Below are positions 10,462 through 57,763 of a stretch of 64,000 bases of DNA, piece after piece. This stretch comes from an uncultured Pseudomonadales bacterium (GTDB lineage: Bacteria > Patescibacteriota > Microgenomatia > UBA1400 > Chazhemtobacteraceae). The first letter of the stretch is position 1. Every line of letters begins with the position of its first letter. The stretch lies in NCBI GenBank assembly GCA_964618725.1, contig CAZUBK010000003.1:10236-74235 (forward strand), read 5' to 3'. Under the pieces are notes generated by a model. It was not told the DNA's origin and did not search any database. It saw only the letters and a program-made list of their open reading frames with translations. The position numbers and the translations under genes are program-made.

Positions 10462-10487
10462 AAGCCACCCACGGGTGGCTTTTCTTC
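10462..10487 (+). terminator. Terminator AAGCCACC-CACG-GGTGGCTT + TTCTTC
   Basis: After paralog B. Convergent with 10487..11851. Confidence 0.5.
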
Positions 10488-11851
10488 TACACTCCTGGTA
10501 CCATTTTCACTTTCTCTACACTCTTACTTCCCGCCCTCCAAGCATCCGCCCTCGTTTTCATGAGTTTTGGATTCACCAAAAAGCCTTTTAGATCTCTTCT
10601 GCCAATGATCATTCTAAAGCGCAGTCCATGTCGTTTGGCCACATTTACCTTTGCCTTTATCTTCTTTCCTCGCATCTTGAAGTCTACCTCGATGATTCTT
10701 CGTACATCCTTCCCCAACGCCGACTTGTAGGCCTGTTCCCACAGAACATGCTCTGGTTTAAGTAATCCCAGTTCTTCCGCCACGTCTTTATCAATACTCG
10801 TACTCCTCGCCCCCGTATCTATCTTCGTGTCTACCAGTATTCTTCTGCCTTTATGCGGCTTGATTGCCACCGTCTCATACACCCCGATCACTTGCTTCTC
10901 GCCTCCCACTGGTCCCACCTTCTTGGCAAACTTGGCCGCAAACAACGCCCTCGCTACCCTCACTCCCTTTTCAATCGAATCAATCTCCAATCCCTCCACT
11001 CGCTCTAATCGCTTCTTTAGCCCCGCCATATTAGCGATCTGAATTTGGAGCCCTGGCTGGTCATTAATCTCAATCACCACCGGCCCCTCCTCCTTGTCTA
11101 TCAAAATATCCACCCCAAAGTAGGCCAACCCCGGCCGCTTGAATTGTATTTTCACCGCTATCTCCAATGCTTTCTGCCAAAAAGGAATTACTATCCCGTT
11201 TACCTTCATCGTCGTCCCCGGGAAGTACTTAATCGACTGACCATGCCAGACGCCAGAAGTCGTAATTCCAGTCGCCATGTCAATCCCAAGCCCAATCGCC
11301 CCCTGGTGCAAATTACTTTTCCCCCTACTCTCCGCTGTCGGTACTCTAAGCATCGCCATCACTGGCACTTTGTTAAACACAATCACTCGTACATCTGGCG
11401 TCCCTCCTACTGCAAACTTCAAAAACTTAGGGTGAATCTTCACCCGTTCCTCAATTAATGCTTTGTCCACCAAATTATTTCGGCTGAATCTACCTTCAAT
11501 GATATCTCGTGCCTGATATCTCAAGTCCTCCACGGTTATCTTTCTTCCATCCATCAGTAACCACTCCCCTTCTTTTTTGGCTGGTTTCTTCACCACCATT
11601 ATTCCTTCCCCTCCCAAGCCTTCGACTGGTTTAATCACAAACCCCACCTGTAGTGACGCCCAGGCGAATTCCTCAATCTCCACTACTGTCCTAAGTAGCC
11701 CCTGCACTCTTGGTGTCGGAATCTTGTACTTCAACAAGAACTCCTTAGTCAACATCTTTGAATCGGCGATTTTCCGCGAACCCCTCTTGTTCAACCGTAA
11801 GTAATAGTGGCTCCTGGCATTAATCCCCAAAATATCTGATACCTTGGCCAT
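10487..11851 (-). CDS. RimK-like ATP-grasp ligase fused to C-terminal DUF785 retropepsin-like (putative ATP-dependent zinc protease) domain
   Basis: N-terminal ATP-grasp with VVIEINDQPGL (ExN). C-terminal ~130 aa with aspartic-protease-like D-T-G-A (ILVDTKIDTGARS). DUF785 is known to associate with RimK-family ligases. Confidence 0.65.
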   Translation of the reverse strand: MAKVSDILGINARSHYYLRLNKRGSRKIADSKMLTKEFLLKYKIPTPRVQGLLRTVVEIEEFAWASLQVGFVIKPVEGLGGEGIMVVKKPAKKEGEWLLMDGRKITVEDLRYQARDIIEGRFSRNNLVDKALIEERVKIHPKFLKFAVGGTPDVRVIVFNKVPVMAMLRVPTAESRGKSNLHQGAIGLGIDMATGITTSGVWHGQSIKYFPGTTMKVNGIVIPFWQKALEIAVKIQFKRPGLAYFGVDILIDKEEGPVVIEINDQPGLQIQIANMAGLKKRLERVEGLEIDSIEKGVRVARALFAAKFAKKVGPVGGEKQVIGVYETVAIKPHKGRRILVDTKIDTGARSTSIDKDVAEELGLLKPEHVLWEQAYKSALGKDVRRIIEVDFKMRGKKIKAKVNVAKRHGLRFRMIIGRRDLKGFLVNPKLMKTRADAWRAGSKSVEKVKMVPGV

Positions 11852-12762
11852 TAACTTTTCAGTAATTTCCTAAACCGATACCTCTCAAGCAATCTAAGCC
11901 CTGTATATCGCCCAATCAGGATGTTAATCCCCGCCACCAAAAGAATCGACAACTCCGGATTCAGTAGTACCCATTCCTGAAGTACCTGAGTACTCAACAC
12001 CAAGAAACTCACCAAAGCCAAGACAAATGTCTCAAACGTCATTTGTAAGGCCGCTCTAAAGCTCTGGGTTACCTGAACATCAATGAATGTCTCTGCCAAC
12101 AACACCAACAGGACAATCGGGAAGATCCCCACCGTCATTAATGTCCTCAGTCCCAACCAAGGGGAAGCCAGAACCAACCCTAGCACACCCAAAGACACAA
12201 ACCACAAAAGCAATGCCATTCTCGGTAGTGACGGGATGTGTAGTTTTCTCATCACCACCCTCCCTACCGTCGCCATCAGCATAATCACTACGAACAATAG
12301 AATCCCTACCGTCACCCCTGTCGCCAAAAAAGCTACTGATATCACCGCCGGAGTAAATATTCCAAAACCCTGCAATCCCACAATATGTCGCCCTCCGGCA
12401 ATCAATGCTGCCACCAGTGGAAACAAAATCAAAAGCACCACCGTATTTGGCGGTACTCCTCTGCTAGCTGCCTCTCTTATTGCCAGTTTCAGAAAATTTA
12501 TCACCACTGGGCCTTCGACTGGATTTTCATCCAGCAATTTCTCTAGCCGACTCTTTGAGTTCTCCGGTTGAGTCAAATCAGATTTTGGTTGTTCCGTCAC
12601 CAATTGAAATAGGCTACTTTCAGTCGCTATTTTTGCTTCTTCAGTTGCCTCTTGAATTGGCGTAACCTTCACAGAACCCGACCTCGTCGCCGTTTTACTC
12701 TGTGCCGACGCCGAACCTCCCAAAAAGAGCAATAAACCAAGACTAATCAATAGTTTCTTCAT
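11851..12762 (-). CDS. Signal-peptide membrane protein with ~7 TM helices (7TM partner of ATP-grasp/DUF785 systems)
   Basis: Cleavable signal (LGGSASAQS), ~100-aa extracytoplasmic region, then 6-7 hydrophobic helices. Its stop overlaps the ligase start, so the two are probably co-transcribed. Confidence 0.45.
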   Translation of the reverse strand: MKKLLISLGLLLFLGGSASAQSKTATRSGSVKVTPIQEATEEAKIATESSLFQLVTEQPKSDLTQPENSKSRLEKLLDENPVEGPVVINFLKLAIREAASRGVPPNTVVLLILFPLVAALIAGGRHIVGLQGFGIFTPAVISVAFLATGVTVGILLFVVIMLMATVGRVVMRKLHIPSLPRMALLLWFVSLGVLGLVLASPWLGLRTLMTVGIFPIVLLVLLAETFIDVQVTQSFRAALQMTFETFVLALVSFLVLSTQVLQEWVLLNPELSILLVAGINILIGRYTGLRLLERYRFRKLLKS

Positions 12763-28318: not shown

Positions 28319-28636
28319 TTAATCTTTCTCCCGTTTACTCCATTCTTCTTTTAATTGTTTTAGCTTCCACATAAACAATCGCCCTTTATTGTTTGCCTTT
28401 GTCGCCCCTCTAACAAAAATCCTTGTCTCCTCCAATAGTGCTCTGTCCGTATTCTTCGCCAATCGCATGTATATTGGCGTATGTGCCGTGTCCAATAGCT
28501 CCACTGCCAGTCGATATGCGTAGTCCTGCCATTCCCGACTGATCCGTCTTTGCTTGTCCGTCTCTATTTGATGATCTTTCAATACACTCTTCAAATCTTG
28601 CATTTTACTTAAGAGCTCCTCTTTCTTCAAGCTCAA
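28319..28636 (-). CDS. Hypothetical protein (105 aa)
   Basis: ORF only. Confidence 0.35.
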   Translation of the reverse strand: MSLKKEELLSKMQDLKSVLKDHQIETDKQRRISREWQDYAYRLAVELLDTAHTPIYMRLAKNTDRALLEETRIFVRGATKANNKGRLFMWKLKQLKEEWSKREKD

Positions 28637-29135
28637 TCATCGCTTTTTTCAACACTTTCTCTACTATCTTGACCTCCTTTTCCTCAAATTCACTCAGTAC
28701 ATATTGCTCACCCACTACCCGATACTCAAAACCCGCCCGATTATCTACTCCAACCCTCACCCGCCAGAAATTCTTACTCCCTAGTTTTTCTTCTACTGAG
28801 GTTACCCCGTTATGCATCTTCGGTCCTATTCCCTTTTGAATCTTATATTCTCCCAAAACTATATCCAAATCATCATGAATCACCCACAGGTCATCCTTTT
28901 TTACCTTGTAAAAACCAGCCAATCTAGCCACTGCCTCTCCTGAACGATTCATAAAGGTCAAGGGCTTCACCAACAAGACATCCTCTACCCTCCCTATCTT
29001 TGCCTCAAACTTCTTTTCTTCCTTCATCTCTATTGCCAGCTCAGCCGCCAAAGTATCTATCGCCGTAAACCCAACATTATGTCGCGTCTTAGCGTATTCC
29101 TTTCCTGGATTACCCAGCCCAACAATTAGTTTCAT
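28605..29135 (-). CDS. pth: Peptidyl-tRNA hydrolase
   Basis: MKLIVGLGNPG..Y..TRHNVGF signature. Confidence 0.85.
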   Translation of the reverse strand: MKLIVGLGNPGKEYAKTRHNVGFTAIDTLAAELAIEMKEEKKFEAKIGRVEDVLLVKPLTFMNRSGEAVARLAGFYKVKKDDLWVIHDDLDIVLGEYKIQKGIGPKMHNGVTSVEEKLGSKNFWRVRVGVDNRAGFEYRVVGEQYVLSEFEEKEVKIVEKVLKKAMIELEERGALK

Positions 29136-34360: not shown

Positions 34361-36061
34361 CTACATTGTCCTCACTTCCTCTACCGACGTCACTTCATTC
34401 AAACTTTTATCATCCCTAAACCTGACTAATCGAGGGAACCTCAATGCCACTCCGCCACTATGAATCGGCGATCGGGTTATCTCATCCGCCGCTATCTCCA
34501 CCACCAATCCGGGATCAACCCAAACATCTGGGTATAGATTCTTGTCTACTACGTACTCTTTCGGCCTAGTGGTACGTATTAACCTGTCCAACCTCTTCTT
34601 CATTTCCCTAAACTGCTCATCTGACAATCCCGTCCCTATCTTGGCAATTGTGACTACTTCATCTCCCCTTCTCACTCCCACCAGGAAAGCACCCAAACCA
34701 AAGATAGATCGCTTACCTCTGCCAGCATAATAGCCCATCACTACACAATCCAAAGTATCCGAAAGTTTTGCTTTCGCTTCTTCTACTTCCTTCATCTTCA
34801 CCCACCTCCAGCCCGTTCTCCCCGGTACGTATTTGCTTCCTAACATTTTCACCACCACTCCTTCTAGTCCTTGTTTCAATAATTCACGATGCGTCTTCTC
34901 AATTTTTTCCGCCTCATCAGTCGTCCAGTAATCATCGACCACTAACAGTCTTTTGTCCTTTATCGTTTCTTTTAAAATCCTCCGCCTTTCTTCATAGGTC
35001 TTGTCAATCAAACTCTTGCCGTTCTTGTACATCACATCAAAAACAAAGAACTTTAATGGCACCTTTTCCGCTTGTTCACCTATCCCATGTTTTCTTTTTC
35101 TGGTAATTGTCATCTGAAAAGACAACATTTTCTTGGTTGTAGGATCAAATCCAACTGCTTCACTGTCCAACACCAGTTCGTCTGCTGATACATCCTCTCC
35201 CATTTTTGCCAACTCGGGAAACATGTGACTTACTTCTTCTAAGTTTCTCGTAAAAACTCTGACAAAACCTTTCCCTCCCCTCCTAAAATGAATCTGAGCC
35301 CTAAGCCCGTCAAACTTCGGCTCCACTGCCACCTCGCCCATTTTCTTCACCATCTCTTTTGGCGACTTAAGTCTTTGGCACAACATCGGGCTAATCGGTA
35401 TCCCTAGTGTCGCCTCAATCTCTACCATCGCCCGTTCAATCCCTTTTTTCTTGATATCCTCTACCAACTGTCCAATATCTGGCTTAATTTGGTAAGCCAG
35501 CTCCAGTTGATCCTTCAGACTCTTGTCTCCCCTTTCCATCACTGATATGGCATCTAAAATCGTCTTGTCCGAAAAGCCCAATCTTAGTTTTCCCATTACA
35601 ATCCTCACCACATACCGGGCTGACAATGACTCCATCTTCTGAATTAATCTCGCCAAACCTTCTATCTTTCTTTCTTGAGAACCCGCCCCCTCATCCCCCG
35701 CTATCTCCATTAATCGCCGATATACTCCACTTACATCACCCTCACCCCTTTCCGATGGCTGCATTTCACTTAGTTTCTCCGCCACCACTCCTAAGTCACC
35801 CAACTGTTTGTATAGTTTCCCCACCCTCTCTTCCGTAACTACAAAGCCACTTGCCAACGACTTCTGCACTTGTTTTTCTGCTAGATTAAACTGCACCCTG
35901 GCAAACGACGGCCCCAGTTGACCTAAAGAGAGATAGATAAGTGGTTTCACCTCTGACTCATCCACGTTCTTCAGTAGATTGGCCAATATCTCCGTCATCG
36001 TGTTTCTCGACGCCGTGTTTTCCAACTCTCTAAATATCTCCGCTAACTCTATGAATTTCAC
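34361..36061 (-). CDS. ATP-dependent DNA ligase
   Basis: EPKFDGLRAQIH (KxDG adenylation motif I). N-terminal DNA-binding domain plus adenylation/OB domain layout. Confidence 0.8.
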   Translation of the reverse strand: MKFIELAEIFRELENTASRNTMTEILANLLKNVDESEVKPLIYLSLGQLGPSFARVQFNLAEKQVQKSLASGFVVTEERVGKLYKQLGDLGVVAEKLSEMQPSERGEGDVSGVYRRLMEIAGDEGAGSQERKIEGLARLIQKMESLSARYVVRIVMGKLRLGFSDKTILDAISVMERGDKSLKDQLELAYQIKPDIGQLVEDIKKKGIERAMVEIEATLGIPISPMLCQRLKSPKEMVKKMGEVAVEPKFDGLRAQIHFRRGGKGFVRVFTRNLEEVSHMFPELAKMGEDVSADELVLDSEAVGFDPTTKKMLSFQMTITRKRKHGIGEQAEKVPLKFFVFDVMYKNGKSLIDKTYEERRRILKETIKDKRLLVVDDYWTTDEAEKIEKTHRELLKQGLEGVVVKMLGSKYVPGRTGWRWVKMKEVEEAKAKLSDTLDCVVMGYYAGRGKRSIFGLGAFLVGVRRGDEVVTIAKIGTGLSDEQFREMKKRLDRLIRTTRPKEYVVDKNLYPDVWVDPGLVVEIAADEITRSPIHSGGVALRFPRLVRFRDDKSLNEVTSVEEVRTM

Positions 36062-40507: not shown

Positions 40508-40996
40508 TTAAATCGGCTCTTTGTTTATCTTCACTACATATCCCAAAGCTTTGAAAAACAAATGGAGCAATATCCCCAAACCCATTGATGCCACTACCAT
40601 CCACCAATTGATCGGAACAAATAGTGCCGCCACCAATAAATATCCTATTACCCAATCAACTTGATCAAAAGGAATCCACGATCTACCAGGAAGAATATCG
40701 ATCCTTCGCTTGAAAAAGCTTTTGATCATATCCCCACTCAAGGCTCCTAAACCAAGAGCCAAACCTAGCCACCAGGGATAATTTGGCAGAATCAAAAGAC
40801 CCAGCAGAGTCGAGGTTACTGTTCCCAAAATCAATCCTTTAATCGTCTTGTGATCTCCCAGAATTCGTTTATCTCCCAAAGTCATGTATCCATCAACTGG
40901 ATAGTTACCCCAAGCCACCTTTGATCCAAATATGGGTGTAATATTTGCCACTCCTGCCACAATTAACAATCCAAGCATCAACTCCAACTGGGCCAT
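40508..40996 (-). CDS. Small polytopic membrane protein of the CTP-transferase-1 superfamily (CdsA/CarS, DUF46-like)
   Basis: 162 aa, ~5 TM. SGDMIKSFFKRRIDILPGR resembles the S-x-[LIVMF]-K-R cytidylyltransferase signature. The size fits CarS/DUF46 rather than bacterial CdsA. Confidence 0.4.
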   Translation of the reverse strand: MAQLELMLGLLIVAGVANITPIFGSKVAWGNYPVDGYMTLGDKRILGDHKTIKGLILGTVTSTLLGLLILPNYPWWLGLALGLGALSGDMIKSFFKRRIDILPGRSWIPFDQVDWVIGYLLVAALFVPINWWMVVASMGLGILLHLFFKALGYVVKINKEPI

Positions 40997-43065: not shown

Positions 43066-44028
43066 CTATTTAAACACTTCTTCCACGTCCTCTTCCCACT
43101 TGTCTTTTGGCAACCTCTTTATCAAACTCTTAAACTGTAACTCCTCAAATAACGTCAGAACTTTCTCTCGATCATAATCACTTAAGCGACAGTTCTTCCA
43201 ATCTAACTTTATCGGCGCCCAACAATCTATCGTCGCCAATTTCTTACTTAAAAAGGCCTTTTCCTCTCCCTCCTCGAGTAGCTTTGTCACCCTTTCTCCC
43301 ATCACCTTCACTATCTCTTCTCTCTGATTTTTCAACACCTTATACATCTTCTCCACCGACTCCCATGCCTGGAGCAATTTGGTCGCCGTCTTAGGTCCCA
43401 CCCCCTTTATGCCCGGGATATTATCGCTACTATCTCCCATCAATGCCTTTAACTCAATGATTTGTCTGGGAGTAAGACCGTATTTCGCTTTGACCGCTTC
43501 TTCATCATATTCCTGACTCCCTCTGTCTTTTCCATATTTCCCCGGCGCTGGCGGCATCCATACTACTACTTTCTTGTCATCAACTAGCTGCAGTGCATCT
43601 CGATCTCCCGTCGCAATTACAATCTGGAATCCATCTTTAGTTTCAGCCTGCGTTGCCAATGTCCCAATCAAGTCATCGGCCTCAAATCCCTCTTTGCCAA
43701 ACTGAGGTATATTCAAGGCATCTACCACTTCATGAGTTCTCTCAATCTGAGATAGCAGCGCCTCATCCGGTTTTTCTCGGTTCGCCTTGTACTGCTCATA
43801 CTCAAAGTGTCTGAAAGTCGGTGCACCTACATCCCAAGTCACTATGACATGTGTTGGCTGTAGCTTCTCCAGAATCGTGAATAGAATGGCGGTGAATCCA
43901 TAAACTGCATTCACTATCTCCCCACTTTTTGTCGACAGACTCAGCGGATATGCATGATATGCCCGATGTAGAATCGACATACCATCTACCAATACGAGTT
44001 TCCTTTTCACCATCATTCTATTCTTCAT
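43066..44028 (-). CDS. Stand-alone 5'-3' exonuclease (Pol I N-terminal domain / FEN-like)
   Basis: LVLVDGMSILHRAYHA N-terminus. Acidic metal-binding clusters and helix-hairpin-helix region. 320 aa. Confidence 0.75.
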   Translation of the reverse strand: MKNRMMVKRKLVLVDGMSILHRAYHAYPLSLSTKSGEIVNAVYGFTAILFTILEKLQPTHVIVTWDVGAPTFRHFEYEQYKANREKPDEALLSQIERTHEVVDALNIPQFGKEGFEADDLIGTLATQAETKDGFQIVIATGDRDALQLVDDKKVVVWMPPAPGKYGKDRGSQEYDEEAVKAKYGLTPRQIIELKALMGDSSDNIPGIKGVGPKTATKLLQAWESVEKMYKVLKNQREEIVKVMGERVTKLLEEGEEKAFLSKKLATIDCWAPIKLDWKNCRLSDYDREKVLTLFEELQFKSLIKRLPKDKWEEDVEEVFK

Positions 44029-47000
44029 CAGTACTTACCTTTTTCTTCTTCATTATCTTTTCAAACTCATCTGCCTCGACTGTCTCATGATCAAGTAGTG
44101 CCTCAGCTAGTTTGTCTACCACTATCCTATTTGCCTTCAATACAATCATTGCTTTTTTACTTGCCGTCTCAACCAGCTCTTTTACTTCTAGATCGATCTT
44201 GCTTTTTAGCCCCTCTGAAATCTGCACTGGCTCCATATATGATCGTCCCCAATCATTCATCTCCCACATCGGCCCCATCGCCATTGGTCCAAGGCCAGAC
44301 ATCCCCAGATCCATTACCATACTCCTAGCAATCCTCGTCGCCTTCTCAATATCACTAGAGGCTCCTGCCGTTAGTTCTTTAAAGATCAATTGCTCTGCCG
44401 CCCGTCCCCCCATCATCATCGCCAATTGGTCGAGCAATTCCGACTTAGTCTGTTGGTATTTGTCTCGATCCGGCAATGCCAACGTCTGACCCAAGCTCTG
44501 TAACCGACTGACAATACTTACCCGATGTACCGGATCTGCCCCTGGCAACATATGCCCTACCACTGCGTGTCCCGCCTCATGATATGCCGTCATCTTTCGC
44601 TCTAAAGGCGACTGTAGTCTCTTCTTTTCCGGTCCCAGCTTTACTTTCGTCGCCGCCTCCTCCAAATCCTTCATCTCTATTTTCTTCCGTGCATATCTTG
44701 CCGTCAAAATAGCTGCCTCATTAAGCATGTTCTCCAAATCTGCTCCCGAAAAACCTACCGTTCTCCTCGCCACCTTGTCCCAATTAATTCCGTCCAAAAA
44801 AGGTTTGTTTTTGGCATGAATTGCCAAGATATCCTTCCTTCCCTCGATATCCGGCATGTCTAATGAGATTCGTCGATCAAATCTTCCCGGACGAATCAAG
44901 GCTGGATCCAATAACTCCGGCCTATTTGTCGCCGCCAACACAATCACATTATCATTGGGCAAGAATCCATCCATCTCGACCAAGATCTGATTCAACGTCT
45001 GTTCTCTTTCGTCATGACCCCCCATTCCTCCTCCCATTCCTCTCATCCGCCCAATCGCGTCTAATTCGTCTATAAAGATGATCGATGGTGCTGCTTTTTT
45101 TGCCGTCAAAAATAGGTCCCTGGTTCTACTTGCTCCCACCCCTACCAACATCTCCATAAACTCACTCCCCGCCATGCTGAAAAACGGCACTCCAGCCTCT
45201 CCGGCCACAGCCTTCGCCAAGAGAGTATTGTGATTAACGAAACCGTTTCCGACAAATGAATGCGTTCCAGGTACCGTAAAATCATAGACCCTTGCTTGAG
45301 ATTTTGTTACCTTTTTCACTTTATCCAGAAAAATACCTGAGTTCACGATCAGTTCCAGATATGCGTAATCTTCGTTCAGCGATATGGCCGGATCAACCTT
45401 CAGACACGAATGAAGAAATAATCTGACCGATTGCATATTTGGTGATCTTTCTCCTGTAACATACCTACAGATTTGCTTGTGGAAGCTATCACCAACGTAC
45501 TTTGAAGGTTTTTTACCGGATTCGACCAGGTATCGCCAAATTCTCTTTATCCTCGCTCCTTGGTAGTAAACCAAGTCTACATTGGTTCTTAGCTTTACAC
45601 TTCCTATGTATCTTGTCAGTCTATCTTGCTTCCTTTTTAATCTAAATCCAATTTGTTGCGAAAACCTTATCAAATTCGTGCCTGAAATCAGAATCATATA
45701 CGCCGTCGAGAACTGGTTCATTCCCTTCACTCGAAACTTATGCATTACCCCCAAATTCAAAAGGAGAGCACTAACCTGTCTTGCCATTTTTTCGCTGGTT
45801 GTTGTATATTCAACCTTCCCAGTTTTGTATACCGACCCATCCGTATCGAACAATCCCTGTAAAAAAGCAACTATGTTTTCTTTCGGAGACATCATTACGT
45901 AATCTGGAACTTTTTTATGTCTTGCATATACCTCTTCCATCCCGTAATTAACCATTTTCGACTTTATCACTGAAGAAGTGACCAAATAATCATATTTTCT
46001 ACTCTTGGTTTTTTTCACCTTGTATCCGAACTCCTCTTGAAAGTAATTTTGGAAACTCAAAAGCAACTGTCTATCCGCCGTCGAGAAATAGATTCTATCT
46101 TTAATGGTAAGTCCCCCATCTCCTGCCAAAAGTCCCAAAAGATAACTCGTCTTTGAATCAAGCAATTTGTAGCTCCCAAACATTTGATCGCCGGTCTTAA
46201 TCACAACAGAATCACCCTTTTTTATTTCCTCTATTTTTTTGAATTTCAGTCGTCCATCCTTATCCATCACTACCAACGGATGTTCAAAAGTTCCTTCGAT
46301 CCTATGCCCCATATCGGTTTGGATCTTGATAGTATCTGAAATTCCCAAGTCATACCAGTGTGATGCACTAGCAACCGTTTGAACTGGATTCTCAGGATCA
46401 AAAGAGGCAAGAGAAGCTCCATGAACATAACCGCTATCCTCGACCGCGAAGTATTTTGGTATATCCTTGATTTCCATTAAGCCCTTGTTTGTTAATACTA
46501 AAGAGTCCCCAGTAATACACTTTCCCACACCCGCCGGACCAATAAGGAGCACTCCCTTGGGTGTCCTCGCTCCCACCGCTTTGTACTTCTTCGGATTCTT
46601 CAGAAAATCTACCACTTCTTCCAGTTCTTTCTTCGCCTCATCTACCCCCGCCACATCTTTGAAAGTCACATTTTGTTTACCCTTGGCAAATAGCTTGGCT
46701 CTGCTTTTGCCAAAACCAAAGATACTTTCCTGTGCTCCCCGTGCTGATCGAGTCATAAACCAAAGAATAAAAGCAAATGCCACAATTGGTAAGACATTGA
46801 CTAATACTCCCGATATCAACTTACCCACCGCCTGAGATCCCACCTTCACCGGCACTCTATCTGCCGCAATTCCTTCTCGCTGCAAGATCTCCACAAAACT
46901 ACTCCCTTCCTCTTTCCTCGATATCTTTATATCTTCTTCACCATAGGTCAGCAAAATTTCGTCTCCCTGTAGTTCTACTTGTTTGACTTTACCATCCTTA

Positions 47001-47185
47001 ATGTCCGACATTGCCTGTGATATATCTATATTAGGCAGTAGTGATGCTGGATCCAGGAAACTGAGCAAAAACGGAACAAACATCAATAAGATCAGTAACC
47101 AGATTGCTACCTTTTTCAGATTGAAATTCATTTTGACTTCAATTTTCTTTATCGGTTTCTGTTCTACTTTCTCTTCGCTAGCCAT
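44018..47185 (-). CDS. ftsH: ATP-dependent zinc metalloprotease FtsH, interrupted by an intein in the Walker A motif
   Basis: N-terminal TM segments. The AAA domain is split as GPAGVGK|C...HN|TLLAKAVAGE, and the exteins rejoin to give GPAGVGKTLLAKA. SRH region. HEAGH zinc motif. C-terminal helical domain. Confidence 0.85.
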   Translation of the reverse strand: MASEEKVEQKPIKKIEVKMNFNLKKVAIWLLILLMFVPFLLSFLDPASLLPNIDISQAMSDIKDGKVKQVELQGDEILLTYGEEDIKISRKEEGSSFVEILQREGIAADRVPVKVGSQAVGKLISGVLVNVLPIVAFAFILWFMTRSARGAQESIFGFGKSRAKLFAKGKQNVTFKDVAGVDEAKKELEEVVDFLKNPKKYKAVGARTPKGVLLIGPAGVGKCITGDSLVLTNKGLMEIKDIPKYFAVEDSGYVHGASLASFDPENPVQTVASASHWYDLGISDTIKIQTDMGHRIEGTFEHPLVVMDKDGRLKFKKIEEIKKGDSVVIKTGDQMFGSYKLLDSKTSYLLGLLAGDGGLTIKDRIYFSTADRQLLLSFQNYFQEEFGYKVKKTKSRKYDYLVTSSVIKSKMVNYGMEEVYARHKKVPDYVMMSPKENIVAFLQGLFDTDGSVYKTGKVEYTTTSEKMARQVSALLLNLGVMHKFRVKGMNQFSTAYMILISGTNLIRFSQQIGFRLKRKQDRLTRYIGSVKLRTNVDLVYYQGARIKRIWRYLVESGKKPSKYVGDSFHKQICRYVTGERSPNMQSVRLFLHSCLKVDPAISLNEDYAYLELIVNSGIFLDKVKKVTKSQARVYDFTVPGTHSFVGNGFVNHNTLLAKAVAGEAGVPFFSMAGSEFMEMLVGVGASRTRDLFLTAKKAAPSIIFIDELDAIGRMRGMGGGMGGHDEREQTLNQILVEMDGFLPNDNVIVLAATNRPELLDPALIRPGRFDRRISLDMPDIEGRKDILAIHAKNKPFLDGINWDKVARRTVGFSGADLENMLNEAAILTARYARKKIEMKDLEEAATKVKLGPEKKRLQSPLERKMTAYHEAGHAVVGHMLPGADPVHRVSIVSRLQSLGQTLALPDRDKYQQTKSELLDQLAMMMGGRAAEQLIFKELTAGASSDIEKATRIARSMVMDLGMSGLGPMAMGPMWEMNDWGRSYMEPVQISEGLKSKIDLEVKELVETASKKAMIVLKANRIVVDKLAEALLDHETVEADEFEKIMKKKKVSTDEE
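45227..46519 (-). mobile_element. Intein (431 aa) with LAGLIDADG homing-endonuclease domain inside ftsH
   Basis: Begins with Cys (residue 223) directly after the P-loop Lys. Ends ...VNHN followed by +1 Thr. Two LAGLIDADG motifs (LLGLLAGDGG, FLQGLFDTDGS). Coordinates derived by codon counting from the start at 47185. Confidence 0.75.
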
Positions 47186-49128: not shown

Positions 49129-50127
49129 TTAATCGAACTTAATTTGCATCGCTTCTTTCATCTGGTCCACTATCCCCTGTGCAATTCCGCTCACTTTCTT
49201 ACTACCCGCCAATGCCTTATCCATCAACTCTCCCCTCATTCCTTCTGCCTCTTTTCTTTTTTCTCTAATCGGCGTCAAGAATTCATTCATTGCAAGATAC
49301 AGTTTTTCCTTTACTTCTACATCTCCCACCTTTCCCTCTCTATATCTATCCTTCAAGTCCTCCACTTCCGCCTTGTTCTTGTTGAACAGGTCATGGTAAA
49401 CAAAAGCCACATTTCCCTCTACCGTTCCCGGGTCAGTCGCGTGAACCCTCTTTGGATCGGTATATACCTTAAATACCTTTTCCCTAAGAACCTCTTCTGA
49501 GTCAGAGAGATAAATCGCGTTCCCCAATGACTTACCCATCTTTTCATTCCCATCAATCCCCGGAATATTTTTCTCCACTCCAAACAAGGCTTCTGGCTCA
49601 GCTAATACCTTCTCTCCATACGTCGCGTTGAACTTTCTGGCTAAATCCCTCGTCGACTCAATCATCGGTGCCTGATCCTTCCCCACTGGCACCAAATCCG
49701 CATTGACGGCCAAGATATCCCCGGCTTGATGAATCGGGTACATGAAAAATCCAAGGGGTGTACTCTTCTCAAACCCTTTCTGCATCATTTCTGTCTTAAT
49801 TGTCGGGTTATGAGAGATTTGCTGCACCGTAGCAAAGTTGGCCAAATACACAAATATCTCGTGAATCTGCGGGACTTCACTTTGAATGAATACCGTCGAC
49901 TTCTCAACATCTATCCCCACCGCATAGTAATCACACAAAAGCTCACTAATACTCTCCTTCACCTTCCCCGGGTTATCAAAGTTATCCGTCAAAGCCTGCA
50001 CATTGGCGATGATAATAAACTGCTCGTATTCATCCTGAAGCTTGACCCGGTTTTCCAAAGAACCAAAGTAATGGCCAATGTGTAGCTTCCCAGTCGGCCT
50101 ATCTCCAGTCAGTATTCTCTTCATCAT
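49129..50127 (-). CDS. trpS: Tryptophanyl-tRNA synthetase
   Basis: TGDRPTGKLHIGHY (HIGH motif). KMGKS (KMSKS motif). 332 aa. Confidence 0.85.
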   Translation of the reverse strand: MMKRILTGDRPTGKLHIGHYFGSLENRVKLQDEYEQFIIIANVQALTDNFDNPGKVKESISELLCDYYAVGIDVEKSTVFIQSEVPQIHEIFVYLANFATVQQISHNPTIKTEMMQKGFEKSTPLGFFMYPIHQAGDILAVNADLVPVGKDQAPMIESTRDLARKFNATYGEKVLAEPEALFGVEKNIPGIDGNEKMGKSLGNAIYLSDSEEVLREKVFKVYTDPKRVHATDPGTVEGNVAFVYHDLFNKNKAEVEDLKDRYREGKVGDVEVKEKLYLAMNEFLTPIREKRKEAEGMRGELMDKALAGSKKVSGIAQGIVDQMKEAMQIKFD

Positions 50128-50159
50128 GAGGCCATTCTACTCCAAAATTCTAAGAAAGT

Positions 50160-50230
50160 AGCAGGGGAGAGAATTGAACTCTCGACTTAGCGATTATGAG
50201 CCGCTCACTCTACCACTGAGTTACCCTGCC
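50160..50230 (-). tRNA. tRNA with anticodon CAT (Met elongator or Ile2/lysidine type); CCA not encoded
   Basis: Hand-folded cloverleaf: acceptor GGCAGGG. D-arm ACTC/AGTGGTA/GAGT. Anticodon stem AGCGG/TCGCT with loop CTCATAA. T-arm GAGAG/TTCAATT/CTCTC. Py11:Pu24 gives an elongator-like D stem. Confidence 0.7.
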
Positions 50231-50262: not shown

Positions 50263-50532
50263 CTAAACCAGTTCCACCCTTAACTCCGCTTCTAATACTT
50301 TTGCCACCTTCCTAAGAAACGATAGCGAGGGTAAAGCACCCATACCTTCTAATCTAGAAATCGCCGACTGACGAGTCCCAAGACGCTTTGCTAATTGTGC
50401 CTGAGTCAGTTTTTTATCAAGTCTTTTTTGAATCACAGCTCTTGCCACCTGATATTCAAGCTCAAACTCTTTTAGTGCCTTTCTGAATTCAGGATTCTCT
50501 AATAGTTTTTTTTTGTGTGTTTCCCAGTTCAT
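50263..50532 (-). CDS. XRE-family HTH antitoxin (HigA-like)
   Basis: LTQAQLAKRLGTRQSAISRLE helix-turn-helix. Immediately downstream of a RelE/HigB-like gene. Confidence 0.6.
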   Translation of the reverse strand: MNWETHKKKLLENPEFRKALKEFELEYQVARAVIQKRLDKKLTQAQLAKRLGTRQSAISRLEGMGALPSLSFLRKVAKVLEAELRVELV

Positions 50533-50568
50533 GAAACCAATATTATCACAAAAAGGTGATAATACAAG

Positions 50569-50928
50569 TTAAACATAAGTCTCGTCTAACCTCACCAAAG
50601 CCATCTTGATCTCCCTTTTATCTATTCTTTGTTTCTTCTTCTTAAACCCATGAAGAATGATTATCGATCTTCCCTTGAAGATATATAGAAATCTCAAACT
50701 ATCATTTCCCAAAAGTCTTAGTTCCCACAAAGGTGTACCAACTATCCTCTTAGCATGAGGTAAACCTGTACGATATCCATATTCTTCTAGTAAGGCAAAG
50801 GCTGCAGCCATTTTCCCCTGCGCGGCTACATTCAGTCTTTCGATGAATTCGTAGACTGGACTATTACCCCGCCTATTTTTGTAATATGCTATCTGCCACT
50901 TTACTTCATTAACCATGTTTATTTTCAC
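50569..50928 (-). CDS. RelE/ParE-superfamily toxin (HigB / Gp49-like)
   Basis: LWELR ... RFLYIF.G..IIILHGFKKK pattern of HigB/Gp49 toxins. The toxin lies upstream of the HTH antitoxin, as in higBA. Confidence 0.55.
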   Translation of the reverse strand: MKINMVNEVKWQIAYYKNRRGNSPVYEFIERLNVAAQGKMAAAFALLEEYGYRTGLPHAKRIVGTPLWELRLLGNDSLRFLYIFKGRSIIILHGFKKKKQRIDKREIKMALVRLDETYV

Positions 50929-51102
50929 TCAAGTTCTGGACCGAAGTCTCATCAAATCCTTTTTCTCTTTCCAAACCAAGTCCCAAAGCTCAAGTCTTTT
51001 TCTAATTACAATCCTACTTCCATTACCCCAAATTTACCCGAATTTGTCAAGTCGAGGGTTAGAAACCCGAAGATTCTGAGCGCAGCGAAGAACCATATCT
51101 AT

Positions 51103-51131
51103 TTGCTGTATCTATCCTTTCATGGTAGAAT
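51103..51131 (+). promoter_or_regulatory. Sigma70-type promoter for the tRNA gene (TTTGCTG -17- TGgTAGAAT)
   Basis: -35-like TTGCTG at 51104..51109 and extended -10 TGgTAGAAT ending at 51131. The predicted TSS is ~10 nt before the tRNA 5' end. Confidence 0.45.
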
Positions 51132-51142
51132 AGTCCTTAACG

Positions 51143-51214
51143 TGCGGGCGGTAGGTCGGTATTCTAAGAAGGCTCATAATCTTCTCTAACCAGGTTCGAC
51201 TCCTGGGCTCGCAA
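51143..51214 (+). tRNA. tRNA with anticodon CAT (second CAU tRNA; Met/fMet/Ile2 undetermined)
   Basis: Hand-folded: acceptor TGCGGGC/GCTCGCA (one G-U). D-arm TAGG/TCGGTAT/TCTA (A11:U24). Anticodon stem GAAGG/TCTTC with loop CTCATAA. T-arm CCAGG/TTCGACT/CCTGG. No CCA. Confidence 0.6.
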
Positions 51215-51280
51215 CCCGAAGTTCTCGTAGAGAACGTAGGTCCTGAGCTCAAAAAAGCGAGGGACGATCACAATTCTATT

Positions 51281-51667
51281 TCATCTAAACAATTTCCACC
51301 ACTTCTCCCAATTAAACACCTCCCTTTCCTCTGTCACTTCTTTATTCTCCTTTTGAGATTCTACGTCCTGTACCATTACAACCGTCTCTCCAGGTCGTTG
51401 TAGATTTAGTTTCTCTCGTGCCTGCATCTCGATGAACTCCCCACTCTCCACTTCCCCCAGCTTATTTCTTAATTCTTCATTCTTCTTTCTCTCCCCCGCT
51501 AATTCGTTCCTTGCCTCCTCTATTCTTCCCCCTGCCTTATATAACTGCCACAGTCCATTACTAAGTACCCAAATCATATAAACAAATAGAAATAGTAGAA
51601 GGGTTCTCCCCAAGTTTGCTCTCATACGTCTTGACTTAAAATGGTTCCTGATATAGTCTACAACCAA
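51281..51667 (-). CDS. Septum formation initiator family protein (FtsB/DivIC-like)
   Basis: N-terminal TM helix followed by a coiled-coil (EEARNELAGERKKNEELRNKL...). 128 aa. Confidence 0.55.
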   Translation of the reverse strand: MVVDYIRNHFKSRRMRANLGRTLLLFLFVYMIWVLSNGLWQLYKAGGRIEEARNELAGERKKNEELRNKLGEVESGEFIEMQAREKLNLQRPGETVVMVQDVESQKENKEVTEEREVFNWEKWWKLFR

Positions 51668-51756: not shown

Positions 51757-52629
51757 ATGACTCAAACCAGCCCCCTCTACCAATCCCTTACTCAATTTGA
51801 AAAGAGTCTCAAGGATTCCGGCCGAGCTACTGCCACCATTCTAGCCTATACCAAAGACATTGAGCAGCTCTTAGATTTCGTCTCCGCTTCCGGCAAAACC
51901 ACTCCTCAGCAAATCACCGCTGATGACATTAATGCTTTCAAGATAAAGCTTTCTAATGAAAACTACACCGCCAAATCTATCTCTCGTAAGATAAACTCTA
52001 TTAAGTCTTTCTTCCGATTTCTTCAAAGCAATAAAGAAATAGAGAGTAACCCCGCCCTTCAGATTACCCACCCCAAGTATGAACTCAAACCGCCTCGTAT
52101 TCTTACCAAAGTTGAATACCGCGCTCTTCGCGACTCTTGCCGCGACGATGCTCGTATTAGTGCAATCGTTGAGCTCCTTCTTCAAACCGGTATCCGCATT
52201 GGTGAATTAGCCAATCTTTCCCTTGAAGATCTAGACCTGGATAATAGTAAGATCTTCATCAAAGCTTACGAGTCTCATCCTTCCCGCCACGTTCCCGTTA
52301 ATAAGGCTGCTAAAGACGCCCTCGTTCGTTACCTCGGTGATCGACCTAAAACTGAACAAAAGTTTGTTTTTATCACCAAAACCGGAAACCAGTTCTTAGT
52401 TAGAAACATTAGAAGTAGCATTGACCGCTATTTCCGCATCGCTGGAATTGAAAACGCCAAGGTCAACGACCTTCGCCATACTTTCATTGCCCACCAGCTC
52501 ATGTCTGGAACCCCCCTCGTCTATGTTAGTAAACTCGTTGGTCATAAGCGCCTCTCTACCACCGAGAAGTATCTTGATGTCATCAAAGAAAAGACTGACA
52601 AAGAGAAACCTAAACTAGAAGAGCTCTAA
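51757..52629 (+). CDS. Tyrosine site-specific recombinase, XerC/XerD-like
   Basis: N-terminal SAM-like core-binding domain. C-terminal R...HxxR...Y catalytic set (LRHTFIAHQL...VGHKRLSTTEKYL). Confidence 0.75.
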   Translation: MTQTSPLYQSLTQFEKSLKDSGRATATILAYTKDIEQLLDFVSASGKTTPQQITADDINAFKIKLSNENYTAKSISRKINSIKSFFRFLQSNKEIESNPALQITHPKYELKPPRILTKVEYRALRDSCRDDARISAIVELLLQTGIRIGELANLSLEDLDLDNSKIFIKAYESHPSRHVPVNKAAKDALVRYLGDRPKTEQKFVFITKTGNQFLVRNIRSSIDRYFRIAGIENAKVNDLRHTFIAHQLMSGTPLVYVSKLVGHKRLSTTEKYLDVIKEKTDKEKPKLEEL

Positions 52630-52643: not shown

Positions 52644-53072
52644 CTACGTAGTGGGTTTTTTATTGGCTCTCTTTATTAGCCTTTTCAGTTCCTTTACTGT
52701 CGCTTTTGCTATAAATCTAAGTACTTCTCCCACTTTTTCTACATCTCCTATCATCAAAGATAGCCAGCCACTACTCGACTTCCTTCTGTCTTCTACAATC
52801 AATAAGGCATTCTTTACGTGTGACAATTCCATTTCCATTCCGCTCACCTCGTCTATGACTATTATCGTCACTGGATTCCCCCCAAGTCCTAACTCTCCTG
52901 AAATAGTCATCCCGTCCTCCTCCATCGCCGACAACTGCAATTCAGTCTCGAACTCGTTCAACTCCTCATCTTCCCAATCCGGATACAACTCCGTAATTAA
53001 GGGTGACTTACCTGCCACCTGAAGTATTCGATCTTTTTTCTCTTTTCCTACTTTCTTCGACATCTGATGCAC
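52644..53072 (-). CDS. Hypothetical protein (142 aa)
   Basis: ORF only. Confidence 0.35.
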   Translation of the reverse strand: MHQMSKKVGKEKKDRILQVAGKSPLITELYPDWEDEELNEFETELQLSAMEEDGMTISGELGLGGNPVTIIVIDEVSGMEMELSHVKNALLIVEDRRKSSSGWLSLMIGDVEKVGEVLRFIAKATVKELKRLIKRANKKPTT

Positions 53073-53107
53073 AAGAATAGTCCTTCTATCAATCTAAGTC
53101 AATGCTG

Positions 53108-53179
53108 TGGGCGACTCAGGGCTCGAACCTGAAACCAATTGTGTATAAGACAATCGCTCTACCATTGAGCTAGTCGCCC
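53108..53179 (-). tRNA. tRNA-Ile with anticodon TAT (UAU), predicted AUA decoder
   Basis: Hand-folded: acceptor GGGCGAC/GTCGCCC. D-arm GCTC/AATGGTA/GAGC. Anticodon stem ATTGT/ACAAT with loop CTTATAC (U33, A37, anticodon UAU). T-arm TCAGG/TTCGAGC/CCTGA. Discriminator A. Confidence 0.65.
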
Positions 53180-53926: not shown

Positions 53927-56278
53927 TTACATTTCGCCCCTTGCCTCTATCTCTGCCTCTACTTCTTCCCTATCTCGTCCATACTTAAGCCTTGATAGTT
54001 CTTTAATCATTCTTCTTACTTCATCACTTCCTGACGCATTTTCTTTTTTAAGATCTCTCCAAGTACTCATCGAAAACGGCGGAACCGGCGTCCCGGCCAC
54101 AATCGTCTTAGCATAAGCCGTTTGGGCCGGAATATTGGTCAAGTCAGCCTCATTAAACACCGGGCCAAATTCCGGTGCCATAATATTTGCATCTTGCACT
54201 CCCATGCGATACACCACCATCGTACCGACGTTGCCAAATATCGCGTTCCTGACTTCTTCATCAATTTGACTTACAAACTGGTTCGCCACAACTAGTCCTA
54301 ATCCGTACTTACGAGCCTCAGATAATATCTGGGCAAAGTCCGGCGTGGCAAAGTTTTGAAACTCATCAACATAGAAGAAGAATGGGTGTCTTTCTGACTT
54401 GGACATATCTTGTCGTGAAAGTGCTGCTGACAGTATCTTTGGCACAATCACGTTACCCAAAAAGTTGCTGTCCTCTTCACCAACCAATCCTTTGGCTAGT
54501 TTAAGTAACACAATTTTCTTCTCATCCATCAATTTTCTAAAGTTAAGTACTGACTTGCTCTGACCAATAATATTCCTTATCAACTTATTTGTGATGAATT
54601 TCCCAAACTTAGACGCGATATAGTCAAGTGTTTCCGATTTGTGAAAGTCCGATGTCTGAGCAATCTGTTCCGTCCAATATCGCTTCACAATCGGATCTTT
54701 GATTTTGGGTAGCAGGTCCTGTACCATTTTGCTATTTTGCAGGATCCGAGACACTTCAATGAAGGTTGCCCCCGGAATCACTGCCGCCGTCAACATCGCA
54801 TTTCGAATCGAGTGCTCAAAGCGAGGCCCGATGATTCCCGTTTTATGAGGATCATATAGTTTATACATCAGGTTAATGATCGACGAAGCCACCATATGCA
54901 TCTCGTCTTCATGTCTTACCTCAAGTAGGTTGAAACCCATCGGCCTCTCCTGATCCGCCGGATCAAACAACACCACATCCTCCGCTCTCTCTGGTGGAAT
55001 TAACCTGAGCAGTTCTTCAATACCGTCTCCGTGTGGCTCCATGAAACAAACTCCATGCCCCGCCCGGATATCCTGCAAAAGCATCGATTTAAGAGTCTCT
55101 GTCTTTCCGGTTCCCGTTCGACCTAGGATGTACATATGCTTCATCCTGTCCTCAGAACCAATGTAAATCGGTCTCTCCTGCCCCCGGTAGATACTCTTCC
55201 CCAAATACAATCCCGATGTTGGTAGTCCCCCCGTTGCCGGAGCAAACTTAGCCACCAACCAATGAATGTGAGGCGTGTCTACCGTCTTATTAGGCAAATG
55301 CCATACCGCCGCCAACTCATCGGCCGACAAAATCGAGTTATAACCAAACATCGACTGGTATCGATAAATGAAGTCAACCATGAAGCCCTTCTTCCATCGA
55401 ATCGTTCTCCCCGATAAATTGTTCAAACTCGAGTTGAACTGGGCAAAAGCACTCTTAAGGTTACTCAAGTTTCCTTTAGCTTGGCCCTCCGTCGGCGCTA
55501 CTGACAAAAGCCTAATCGCCGTCAAGAAGCCTGGCTTTCCCGTTTTGCTGTCAATCGCTGCCATATCCTCGGGAGACATCTTAAACTTTGCTTTTTCCGG
55601 ATTTGCTTCATCTTTCTTGGTTGTAGATAGAAATACTGATCCTGCCTTACTCCATGCTGACTCTGCCGGTGTCACGATCATTTGTATTATCATCGCCTCA
55701 CCCTCGCCCAATTTGGCCAATGACGCCGTAATCGAGCTCAAAGGGTCCACTGGCATATCCTTATATGGCTTCAATGGATAGAAATTCTTCTTTTTCAAAG
55801 CCAGTTCCGCAAAAGCGACCTTACCGTCCTTGCTAAAAACATTTGGCTCCTCCACTATTTTCACCTCGGCTCCTGAATATGCACCAGCCAAGAGCTTCTC
55901 CACCAACTCCGCATTGTTCCGATGGCAACTGACATAGAACCTGATATCTTCTTTCTTCGCCACAATCTCCAAACTAATATGCTGTTGCGCTCTAAATCTC
56001 TGCCAAAACCCCCCTTTCTTAATTGAATAAAGCGAGTTAAACACCTGCTCCATCGAATCAATCTTCACCTCATTATCTCGTGGAACTGCAATCTGCATTG
56101 TCACAAAGTTAAGCGAGACTTCTTCCCTGTTCCTAAACTTTATCCATTGCAGGAAAACAAATCCCAGTCCCACCATGATTAATATCAACACAGCCAAGAT
56201 TCCCACCGCCAACAATACCAACTCCACCATCTGGTTCAAATTACTTAATGTGGTGCCAACCAATTCTGTTCCCTGCAT
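53927..56278 (-). CDS. Membrane-anchored P-loop ATPase of the VirD4/TraG/TrwB type IV coupling-protein family (long N-terminal domain)
   Basis: N-terminal TM hairpin. Walker A GRTGTGKT. C-terminal VDEF...ARKYGLGLVVANQFVSQI...NVGTMVVYR closely resembles the TrwB/TraG-D C-terminal signature (DEL...GRKRGIRLVLAVQSIAQL...THVVFR). Confidence 0.6.
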   Translation of the reverse strand: MQGTELVGTTLSNLNQMVELVLLAVGILAVLILIMVGLGFVFLQWIKFRNREEVSLNFVTMQIAVPRDNEVKIDSMEQVFNSLYSIKKGGFWQRFRAQQHISLEIVAKKEDIRFYVSCHRNNAELVEKLLAGAYSGAEVKIVEEPNVFSKDGKVAFAELALKKKNFYPLKPYKDMPVDPLSSITASLAKLGEGEAMIIQMIVTPAESAWSKAGSVFLSTTKKDEANPEKAKFKMSPEDMAAIDSKTGKPGFLTAIRLLSVAPTEGQAKGNLSNLKSAFAQFNSSLNNLSGRTIRWKKGFMVDFIYRYQSMFGYNSILSADELAAVWHLPNKTVDTPHIHWLVAKFAPATGGLPTSGLYLGKSIYRGQERPIYIGSEDRMKHMYILGRTGTGKTETLKSMLLQDIRAGHGVCFMEPHGDGIEELLRLIPPERAEDVVLFDPADQERPMGFNLLEVRHEDEMHMVASSIINLMYKLYDPHKTGIIGPRFEHSIRNAMLTAAVIPGATFIEVSRILQNSKMVQDLLPKIKDPIVKRYWTEQIAQTSDFHKSETLDYIASKFGKFITNKLIRNIIGQSKSVLNFRKLMDEKKIVLLKLAKGLVGEEDSNFLGNVIVPKILSAALSRQDMSKSERHPFFFYVDEFQNFATPDFAQILSEARKYGLGLVVANQFVSQIDEEVRNAIFGNVGTMVVYRMGVQDANIMAPEFGPVFNEADLTNIPAQTAYAKTIVAGTPVPPFSMSTWRDLKKENASGSDEVRRMIKELSRLKYGRDREEVEAEIEARGEM

Positions 56279-56941: not shown

Positions 56942-57763
56942 TCAAAAATCAAGCTGTTTACTAGATAAAAAATTCCTTCCTGAAACAACTGATCGACCTA
57001 GTTTTTCTTCAAGTTTTTTTCTTGCTCCACCAGCAATATCTCCACCTATTTCAGCATCTTTTTTAAGCTTTAGTAATCCCTGTGAGTTCTCGGTCTTGTG
57101 GATCTCCGTTGTTGCCCGTTCCCCAAGCATCGTGAAGATAAGCTCAAAGTCATCCATATGATCACGCAGATTCTCTCGCTTAAGACCCTTGAGATCCTTG
57201 TATTCACTAGGCGTAATCCCAAAAGTCGCTTTAGAAATCTCCGCCGTTAGAATTTCATAATCACTTTGCTGTTCTGCTCCCCGCTTTTTCCATTCATCTG
57301 TTAATTCTTCACGGATTATAATCCCCCTCATCCTTTTCTCAATCCAATCCTCAGAATACCCTTTTGCCTTGTATAACGCTCTAGTTCGTTTAGCTGCCAA
57401 CTCAGGATCTTCTATTTCTTGAACTCTTTCATAACCAACTTTAGCTAACCAGCGTTTAAACGGTTCAGCTTTAGGAGAGGGAATTGACTGAATAATTCTG
57501 AACATCGTTTCGGTATTCGCACAATCAGTCTCACGAATCTTTCCATCAAGAGCATCTAATTTCAACCGTCCGATTTTTTCGGACACTTCAGAATAACCTT
57601 CTTTAGCAAGCTTTGTCTTAAGATCGTTCCAGTATTTCCTCGGCCGATCTGTTCCAGTTAGACTTTCTACTATATCCACAATCGAAAACCACCATTCATT
57701 GGCGTAGATTATCTTCCGTATTTTCTTTCCCTTAAAAATCGCAATCTTTGTGTTTGTCTCCAT
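56942..57763 (-). CDS. DinD-like / Bro-N domain protein (DNA-damage-inducible protein D family)
   Basis: N-terminal Bro-N-like region (KIRKIIYANEWWFSIVDIVESL). The C-terminal KGLKRENLRDHMDDFEL...IHKTENSQG segment resembles E. coli DinD (KGLKKNQKILDHMGSTEL...KLKRDGV). Confidence 0.55.
   Translation of the reverse strand: METNTKIAIFKGKKIRKIIYANEWWFSIVDIVESLTGTDRPRKYWNDLKTKLAKEGYSEVSEKIGRLKLDALDGKIRETDCANTETMFRIIQSIPSPKAEPFKRWLAKVGYERVQEIEDPELAAKRTRALYKAKGYSEDWIEKRMRGIIIREELTDEWKKRGAEQQSDYEILTAEISKATFGITPSEYKDLKGLKRENLRDHMDDFELIFTMLGERATTEIHKTENSQGLLKLKKDAEIGGDIAGGARKKLEEKLGRSVVSGRNFLSSKQLDF

Follow-up and report, generated by a model that had tools for sequence, protein, structure and literature searches.

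A conserved tRNA-Ile(UAU) gene in a Patescibacteria chromosome, and its candidate role in TilS-independent reading of AUA codons

Within the 64 kb stretch of DNA analysed here (hereafter the window, meaning that whole stretch), three tRNAs were called by ARAGORN. One of them, on the minus strand at 53107-53179, is a tRNA-Ile whose anticodon is tat. Its neighbourhood holds the following features, given in order of position:

44018-47185, minus strand: ftsH, with an intein (Pfam)
49129-50127, minus strand: a class I tRNA synthetase of the Trp/Tyr family (Pfam tRNA-synt_1b, 2e-61), treated here as TrpRS (trpS), with putative specificity for Trp
50159-50230, minus strand: an elongator-type tRNA(CAU) directly upstream of trpS (ARAGORN; Rfam, 66.3 bits)
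51143-51216, plus strand: a sub-threshold tRNA-like sequence with a CAU triplet, called by ARAGORN only
51281-51667, minus strand: a DivIC/FtsB-like septum protein (Pfam DivIC, 8.4e-13), with homologues in the related loci L002, L005 and L086
51757-52629, plus strand: a XerC/D-like tyrosine recombinase (Pfam Phage_integrase and a SAM-like N domain), conserved in its place between tRNA(CAU) and tRNA-Ile(UAU)
52644-53072, minus strand: a conserved hypothetical gene with no Pfam or PHROG match, immediately downstream of the tRNA-Ile(UAU) gene; its homologues adjoin the tRNA in L002 and L005
53108-53179, minus strand: the tRNA-Ile(UAU) gene (ARAGORN and Rfam), 72 nt, CCA not encoded, anticodon at 53145-53147
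53927-56278, minus strand: a VirD4/TrwB-like coupling-protein ATPase, upstream of the tRNA-Ile(UAU) gene (Pfam TrwB_AAD_bind, TraG-D_C and DUF87)

The tRNA-Ile(UAU) gene matches the Rfam model RF00005 over its full length (53179-53108, model positions 1-71 of 71), scoring 70.2 bits (gathering score 29; E-value 2.8e-13). Written in segments, the RNA reads GGGCGAC UA GCUC AAUGGUA GAGC G AUUGU CUUAUAC ACAAU UGGUU UCAGG UUCGAGC CCUGA GUCGCCC A. The anticodon loop CUUAUAC has seven nucleotides: C32, U33, the anticodon U34-A35-U36 (window 53147-53145, minus strand), A37 and C38. A preliminary description of this DNA had reported a real tRNA-Ile with a UAU anticodon and a clean cloverleaf, in whose loop, CTTATAC, TAT occupies positions 34-36 between U33 and A37. 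All of this is borne out, coordinates and loop included: the loop can be read directly, the body is of the isoleucine type, and the ARAGORN check proposed at the time returned tat and a full cloverleaf, with nothing of a low-scoring pseudo-tRNA about it. The strand had been left unstated; the plus strand at the anticodon loop reads GTATAAG, and the tRNA is its reverse complement. Single tRNAs often fail to give a cloverleaf in MFE folding, and the window copy folded alone did not reproduce one; alignment to the covariance model and a count of covariation were preferred.

Its relatives and its gene content place the window in the chromosome of a CPR/Patescibacteria bacterium with a reduced genome, which accords with the earlier expectation that genuine UAU tRNAs for isoleucine occur in scattered reduced genomes. 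A scan with the synthetase against one genome per GTDB species found its nearest counterparts in CPR/Patescibacteria MAGs at 65-82% identity, followed by Clostridia at ~50%. Among the named relatives, L003 bears the label Candidatus Collierbacteria, and L007 and L011 that of Candidatus Dojkabacteria; other names given to automatic bins, 'Pseudomonadales' for one, lack credibility. Cellular genes recognised by Pfam include FtsH (with its intein), a P-type ATPase, an ATP-dependent DNA ligase, the Trp/Tyr-family synthetase, class II RNR with NrdR, Pth, MnmA, UppS, thioredoxin reductase, Fpg, RecF and glycosyltransferases. That the window might be a phage, as its PHROG hits, the placement of nearly all its genes on one strand and its several tRNAs could suggest, was considered and ruled out by this cellular content and by a megablast of the 10 kb region against 50,697 phage records, which gave no match.

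The strand asymmetry of the window is pronounced. GC skew stays at about -0.35 along all 64 kb and is -0.27 in intergenic DNA, while at third codon positions it is +0.55 for genes on the minus strand and -0.54 for those on the plus strand; as the sign changes with the strand and the skew extends to intergenic DNA, the bias follows the DNA strand and not the coding sense. The G-rich strand carries 55 of the 72 ORFs in the window. The asymmetry is common to the closest relatives (|0.24-0.40| in L001, L002, L003, L005 and L084), distant CPR loci showing at most |0.18|.

The tRNA-Ile(UAU) gene keeps its place in related genomes. In the two nearest relatives that retain the flanks, a tRNA-Ile(tat) is called at the same position (L002, 1836-1910; L005, 5-79), and at least six related genomes or contigs have the gene in this neighbourhood. 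The order held in common, traced by tblastn of the window proteins, runs from the VirD4/TrwB-like ATPase through tRNA-Ile(UAU), the hypothetical gene, the XerC/D-like gene and DivIC to tRNA(CAU), and then, in the window, L002 and L005, though not in L086, to the synthetase, a tRNA-binding protein and FtsH. With no more than 40-80% identity between their flanking proteins, these syntenic genomes must lie far apart. Homologues of the ATPase flank the tRNA in L002, L082, L084, L086 and L089, the last four being metagenome contigs; those of the recombinase, 64-68% identical, occupy the same place in L002 and L005 and are present in L084 and L086 too, the second of which has a DivIC-like gene as well. 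One further contig of 1 kb, L088, carries a near-identical tRNA and gave no protein match. These five contigs come from a pattern scan of metagenomes for the tRNA, which returned eight copies in all, a number that is not a measure of prevalence, since the pattern matched 7-nt variable loops only and left copies of the window type uncounted.

Selection on the tRNA itself is evident from its substitutions. When the nine distinct sequences of the family were parsed to cloverleaf positions, all 21 of 21 stem pairs were standard in every one, with changes on both sides and several pair types at most positions of the acceptor stem, anticodon stem and T stem; orthologues with fully compensated stems are those of L002, L005, L082, L084, L086, L088 and L089. 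A73, G2-C71 and U12-A23 are invariant across the nine. Three copies (window, L002 and L005) were found by synteny and not by a sequence pattern, and their loops do not differ: each reads CUUAUAC. Because the locus is conserved and every stem pair is kept through compensatory changes, the tRNA can be taken as functional and under selection, and the full-length model match combined with those compensatory changes in relatives excludes a chance origin. On this comparative evidence the gene is a functional chromosomal elongator tRNA gene with an isoleucine-type body, under purifying selection.

The amino acid carried by the tRNA can be approached from its body and from the use of its codon. The family member in L086 has as its best match among 5,426 E. 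coli genomes the full-length tRNA-Ile of the 16S-23S spacer, beside tRNA-Ala, which we take to be the GAU isoacceptor. This likeness agrees with the observation of Silva et al. that the UAU tRNA of Mycoplasma mobile resembles tRNA-Ile(GAU) (PMC1635315). The window copy, by blastn against the E. coli genomes, gave weak partial matches only, as its sequence is too diverged for that method. Outside the anticodon, isoleucine identity in E. coli is set by A73, C4-G69, U12-A23, C29-G41, A37 and A38. Of this set, A73 and U12-A23 are invariant in the family and C4-G69 is present in seven of nine members, while C29-G41 is variable and C stands at position 38. AUA codon usage, a check that the preliminary description had also called for, was computed on the longer ORFs of the window: AUA makes up 292 of 1163 isoleucine codons (25%), or 16.6 per 1000 codons, which falls into the 'high' class on the scale of PMC12514573. 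In alignments of homologues, AUA positions hold I in 46%, V in 18%, L in 13% and M in 5% of cases, a profile like that of AUU and AUC and unlike that of AUG, whose positions hold M in 38%. As AUA aligns with Ile, Val and Leu in the manner of AUU and AUC, it means isoleucine here, and as it is abundant, a decoder for it is needed. The profile of the AUA positions gives indirect support to the presumed charging of tRNA-Ile(UAU) with isoleucine.

Most bacteria meet that need by another route, a lysidine-modified CAU tRNA made by TilS, and the earlier statement to this effect is well founded: tilS is present in ~98% of bacterial genomes (PMC6063277, PMC12514573) and is evolutionarily stable (PMC6063277). 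In Mollicutes the gene sits between pth and ftsH (PMC1635315). A scan of the 64 kb window for the PP-loop motif (SGGxDS) found no tilS. The sole PP-loop ORF is the first of two further features that bear on the search:

4331-5416, minus strand: MnmA (tRNA 2-thiouridylase) and not TilS (Pfam tRNA_Me_trans, 5e-72; PF01171 at 18.5 bits, below the 27 required)
28605-29135, minus strand: pth, peptidyl-tRNA hydrolase (Pfam Pept_tRNA_hydro, 7e-55), with no adjacent tilS

The ORFs neighbouring ftsH in the window were scanned and include neither tilS nor hpt upstream; no tilS was found upstream of ftsH in the related loci L015 and L017, and the PP-loop scan gave none across 16 related loci. The same organism is represented by a Logan contig as well (proteins 100% identical), which continues for 10 kb past the window; the few Pfam hits recorded there include no TilS or IleRS family. 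No IleRS was found in the window or the related loci either. Altogether the search for tilS covered ~74 kb of a genome estimated at 0.7-1 Mb. The earlier suggestion of an altered AUA-decoding strategy, possibly with loss of tilS, finds partial support in these results.

Decoding of AUA in a TilS-independent manner has been described in M. mobile (Silva et al. 2006, PMC1635315; Taniguchi et al. 2013, PMC3575796), and the window may be compared with it point by point. Both have an elongator tRNA with an isoleucine-type body and a genomically encoded UAU, a small reduced genome, frequent AUA, and no tilS beside ftsH or pth. A genomic tRNA-Ile(UAU) together with AUA as an isoleucine codon, one of the marks of a TilS-independent system, is found in the window. 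The other marks are the lack of tilS and of a tRNA-Ile2(CAU) gene, an IleRS adapted to U34 (with Arg or Lys replacing the wobble-stacking Trp, or of eukaryote type) and an unmodified U34. The two differ in lineage (Mollicutes there, CPR here) and in the loop, where C38 is invariant in the CPR clade. M. mobile, moreover, has demonstrably lost both tilS and tRNA-Ile2(CAU), its IleRS carries the adaptive residue R865 (where E. coli has the diagnostic W905) and its U34 is unmodified (PMC3575796); for the lineage of the window such traits would be predictions. By analogy, the system in the window may work like the tRNA-Ile2(UAU) of M. mobile. The tRNA would be charged by an IleRS that accepts U34, as in a TilS-independent system of the M. 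mobile kind, and would read AUA directly through pairing of U34 with A, with misreading of AUG limited by the ribosome, by the anticodon loop or by both.

The loop offers one candidate for such a limit. C32/C38 is found throughout the CPR clade, whereas among the 64 distinct viral UAU tRNAs with isoleucine bodies in the matches listed, C32/A38 accounts for 46, C32/C38 for 14 and other states for four. The 32-38 pair tunes ribosome binding, and it is a matter of speculation that C38 might help to limit U34-G wobble on AUG.

On this analogy we lean modestly towards tRNA-Ile(UAU) being the main or only decoder of AUA, in a lineage with a TilS-independent system like that of M. mobile; its long-term conservation suggests that it is needed. 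The E. coli IleRS identity elements C29-G41 and A38 count against such a reading, as they are not conserved in the family. A broader proposal would have the whole CPR clade, whose genomes use AUA heavily (~17 per 1000 codons) and show an extreme mutational bias between strands, permanently replacing TilS and tRNA-Ile2(CAU) by a UAU tRNA-Ile with the invariant C32/C38 loop, and its chances we place a little short of even. Were it true, the clade would need adaptations of its own IleRS and ribosome to keep AUG from being read as isoleucine, and tilS would have been lost in ancient times, at the level of a lineage, in a group other than Mollicutes, Bifidobacterium and Neorickettsia.

The alternative that survives best is that the tRNA is redundant: the genome would also encode tilS and a tRNA-Ile2(CAU), possibly the gene at 50159-50230, and AUA would be read by both tRNAs. 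The prevalence and stability of tilS in bacteria (~98% of genomes; PMC6063277) speak for it, as do the ~74 kb covered out of an estimated 0.7-1 Mb, and there is precedent, since tilS and a UAU tRNA occur together in Cyanothece PCC 7424, Ferrimonas balearica and Lactobacillus casei, for which dual reading has been proposed (PMC3575796). The window resembles these three in having a UAU tRNA-Ile that possibly stands beside a lysidine system, given the adjacent tRNA(CAU); in them, however, the gene is sporadic, whereas in the clade of the window it is syntenic across deeply diverged genomes, and conservation of that depth argues for a role that is not dispensable. The neighbourhoods of pth and ftsH, the place of tilS in Mollicutes, are likewise without the gene (PMC1635315).

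The tRNA(CAU) at 50159-50230, which bears on this alternative, is conserved in L002 (4515-4588), L003 (204-278), L005 (1946-2020) and L086 (3110-3183). Its best E. coli match is the ileZ tRNA-Ile(CAU) of an Stx prophage (83% over 53 nt), so that it could be a tRNA-Ile2, and in global alignment it shares 49-52 of 72 positions with ileX/ileZ against 41 of 72 with metT. Its orthologues show no such resemblance to ileX: the L002 copy is nearer to metT (54 vs 49), and those of L003, L005 and L086 tie. The acceptor stem, GGCAGGG/CCCUGCU, has G1.U72, C3-G70 and A73 and is without the C4-G69/C5-G68 that are commonest in tRNA-Ile(CAU), so that by the published acceptor discriminators (PMC1635315) the gene leans towards elongator tRNA-Met. 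Acceptor-stem discriminators and E. coli references thus disagree, and the assignment of this tRNA to Met or Ile2 is equivocal. Weighing both sides, we regard a second, lysidine-based decoder as plausible, though less likely than not. In the window, L002, L003 and L005 the same G1.U72 closes the acceptor stem of this tRNA, the anticodon stem being almost entirely different; the L086 copy differs in the acceptor at two pairs.

Two CAU tRNAs had originally been reported close to tRNA-Ile(UAU). The one at 50159-50230 is solid (66.3 bits), but the other, at 51143-51216, falls below the threshold of the tRNA model: there is no Rfam tRNA match at E<=1, the best match within the clan in a 161-nt search is tRNA-Sec at 20.2 bits (below a gathering score of 47), and the fold is no better than that of shuffled sequences (z-score -1.25). 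It is cloverleaf-like, with the initiator features U1-A72, A11-U24, G12-C23 and A29G30G31/U39C40U41 (PMC1635315), but U8 and A14 are replaced by G8 and U14. We treat it as a tRNA-like remnant or non-canonical tRNA and not as evidence on AUA decoding. It belongs to a segment specific to the window (50263-51216), between tRNA(CAU) and divIC and absent from L002 and L005, which also holds an HTH antitoxin-like gene (50263-50532) and a Gp49/HigB-like toxin (50569-50928).

A further alternative would make the gene an auxiliary rare-codon tRNA, carried as cargo by an integrated mobile element or prophage. The Phage_integrase gene (51757-52629) and the TrwB/TraG-like gene (53927-56278) stand on either side of it and a BRO-N gene (56942-57763) lies nearby, and viral contigs commonly carry such tRNAs: at least 120 in IMG/VR (L090-L187 and further) encode UAU tRNAs with isoleucine bodies, very often adjacent to tRNA-Arg(UCU). 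The tRNA of the window shares with them the anticodon, an isoleucine-like body (TAGAGCG ... GGTTCGA) and, for 14 of the 64 distinct viral sequences listed, C32/C38. It differs in being chromosomal, in housekeeping synteny, in lacking a tRNA-Arg(UCU) partner anywhere in the window (ARAGORN) and in having no close viral relative among the matches listed, none of which extends beyond a 29-nt stretch of the tRNA or includes the window's neighbours. Its order with housekeeping genes (synthetase, ftsH, divIC) is kept across genomes of 40-80% identity, the recombinase is itself conserved in place, like XerC/D, and the 10 kb region is without a match in the 50,697 phage records. With this synteny, no phage DNA match and no related viral contig, the locus does not behave as a variable, element-like segment resembling those of viral tRNAs, and we consider an origin as mobile cargo very improbable.

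The viral copies do qualify the earlier claim that UAU tRNA-Ile is rare. For cellular bacteria it stands, with 19 species in tRNADB-CE in 2014 (PMC4013482) and mention as 'rare cases' in 2026 (bioRxiv 10.64898/2026.02.03.703510); for phages it does not, in view of the 120 or more IMG/VR contigs. In viral contigs tRNA-Ile(UAU) and tRNA-Arg(UCU) form a rare-codon pair for AUA and AGA. Two metagenome contigs, L085 (4357-14300) and L087 (1012-8929), hold arrays of 10-13 tRNAs with a tmRNA (tag VRVETTLGFLHALV); the arrays include a tRNA-Ile(UAU) with the same loop as the window copy and resemble a tRNA island or part of a large phage.

That the tRNA is a pseudogene or a chance cloverleaf without function, a general possibility to which the window copy lends only its missing CCA, has a negligible probability against a full-length match of 70.2 bits, nine homologues without one unpaired stem position despite many substitutions, and an anticodon loop invariant in three copies found independently of any sequence pattern.

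Taken as a whole, the evidence is probably best explained, and here our confidence is moderate, by a conserved, functional tRNA-Ile(UAU) that would be charged by IleRS and would read AUA directly, with independence from TilS as the proposal that goes with it. As a phenomenon this is not new, having been known from 2006-2013 onwards: UAU tRNA-Ile has already been described in M. mobile, Bifidobacterium, Neorickettsia and others (PMC3575796; PMC1635315 for M. mobile). Bifidobacterium and Neorickettsia resemble the present case in having a UAU tRNA-Ile at the level of a bacterial lineage, and are themselves marked by the lack of tilS and by an IleRS of eukaryote type (PMC3575796); the window holds no IleRS gene of either type. 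A literature search found no paper linking lysidine or TilS with CPR bacteria, and a UAU tRNA-Ile appears to be undescribed for the CPR phylum in the literature searched. The finding adds a phylum to those in which a known phenomenon occurs, and leaves the general picture unchanged.

In bacteria TilS is regarded as essential and close to universal, and it has been discussed as a bacteria-specific target; the few exceptions show alternative solutions to the problem of telling AUA from AUG in decoding. A CPR clade that has long kept a UAU tRNA-Ile would add an independent natural case, and would offer co-evolved variants of IleRS and of the anticodon loop for comparison with M. mobile. For annotation, CAU tRNAs by themselves are an insufficient guide to how AUA is decoded in such genomes.

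Several other features of the window deserve mention. The intein in FtsH (Pfam Intein_splicing, with a LAGLIDADG_3 homing-endonuclease domain) spans roughly 45227-46522 and precedes the AAA domain; the FtsH orthologues of L002, L003 and L005 are without it. Three genes of the RimK/ATP-grasp family (6096-6971, 8392-9330 and 10487-11851) are clustered in the region 6096-12762 and adjoin a 7TM-transglutaminase-associated membrane protein (11851-12762), the pair formed by the last two of these four genes being adjacent in L004, L008, L009 and L011 as well. The DNA ligase (34361-36061, minus strand) is ATP-dependent and of archaeal/eukaryotic type, with an N-terminal DNA-binding domain, and a CarS-like protein of the CDP-archaeol synthase family is encoded at 40508-40996 (minus strand), both in a bacterial genome.
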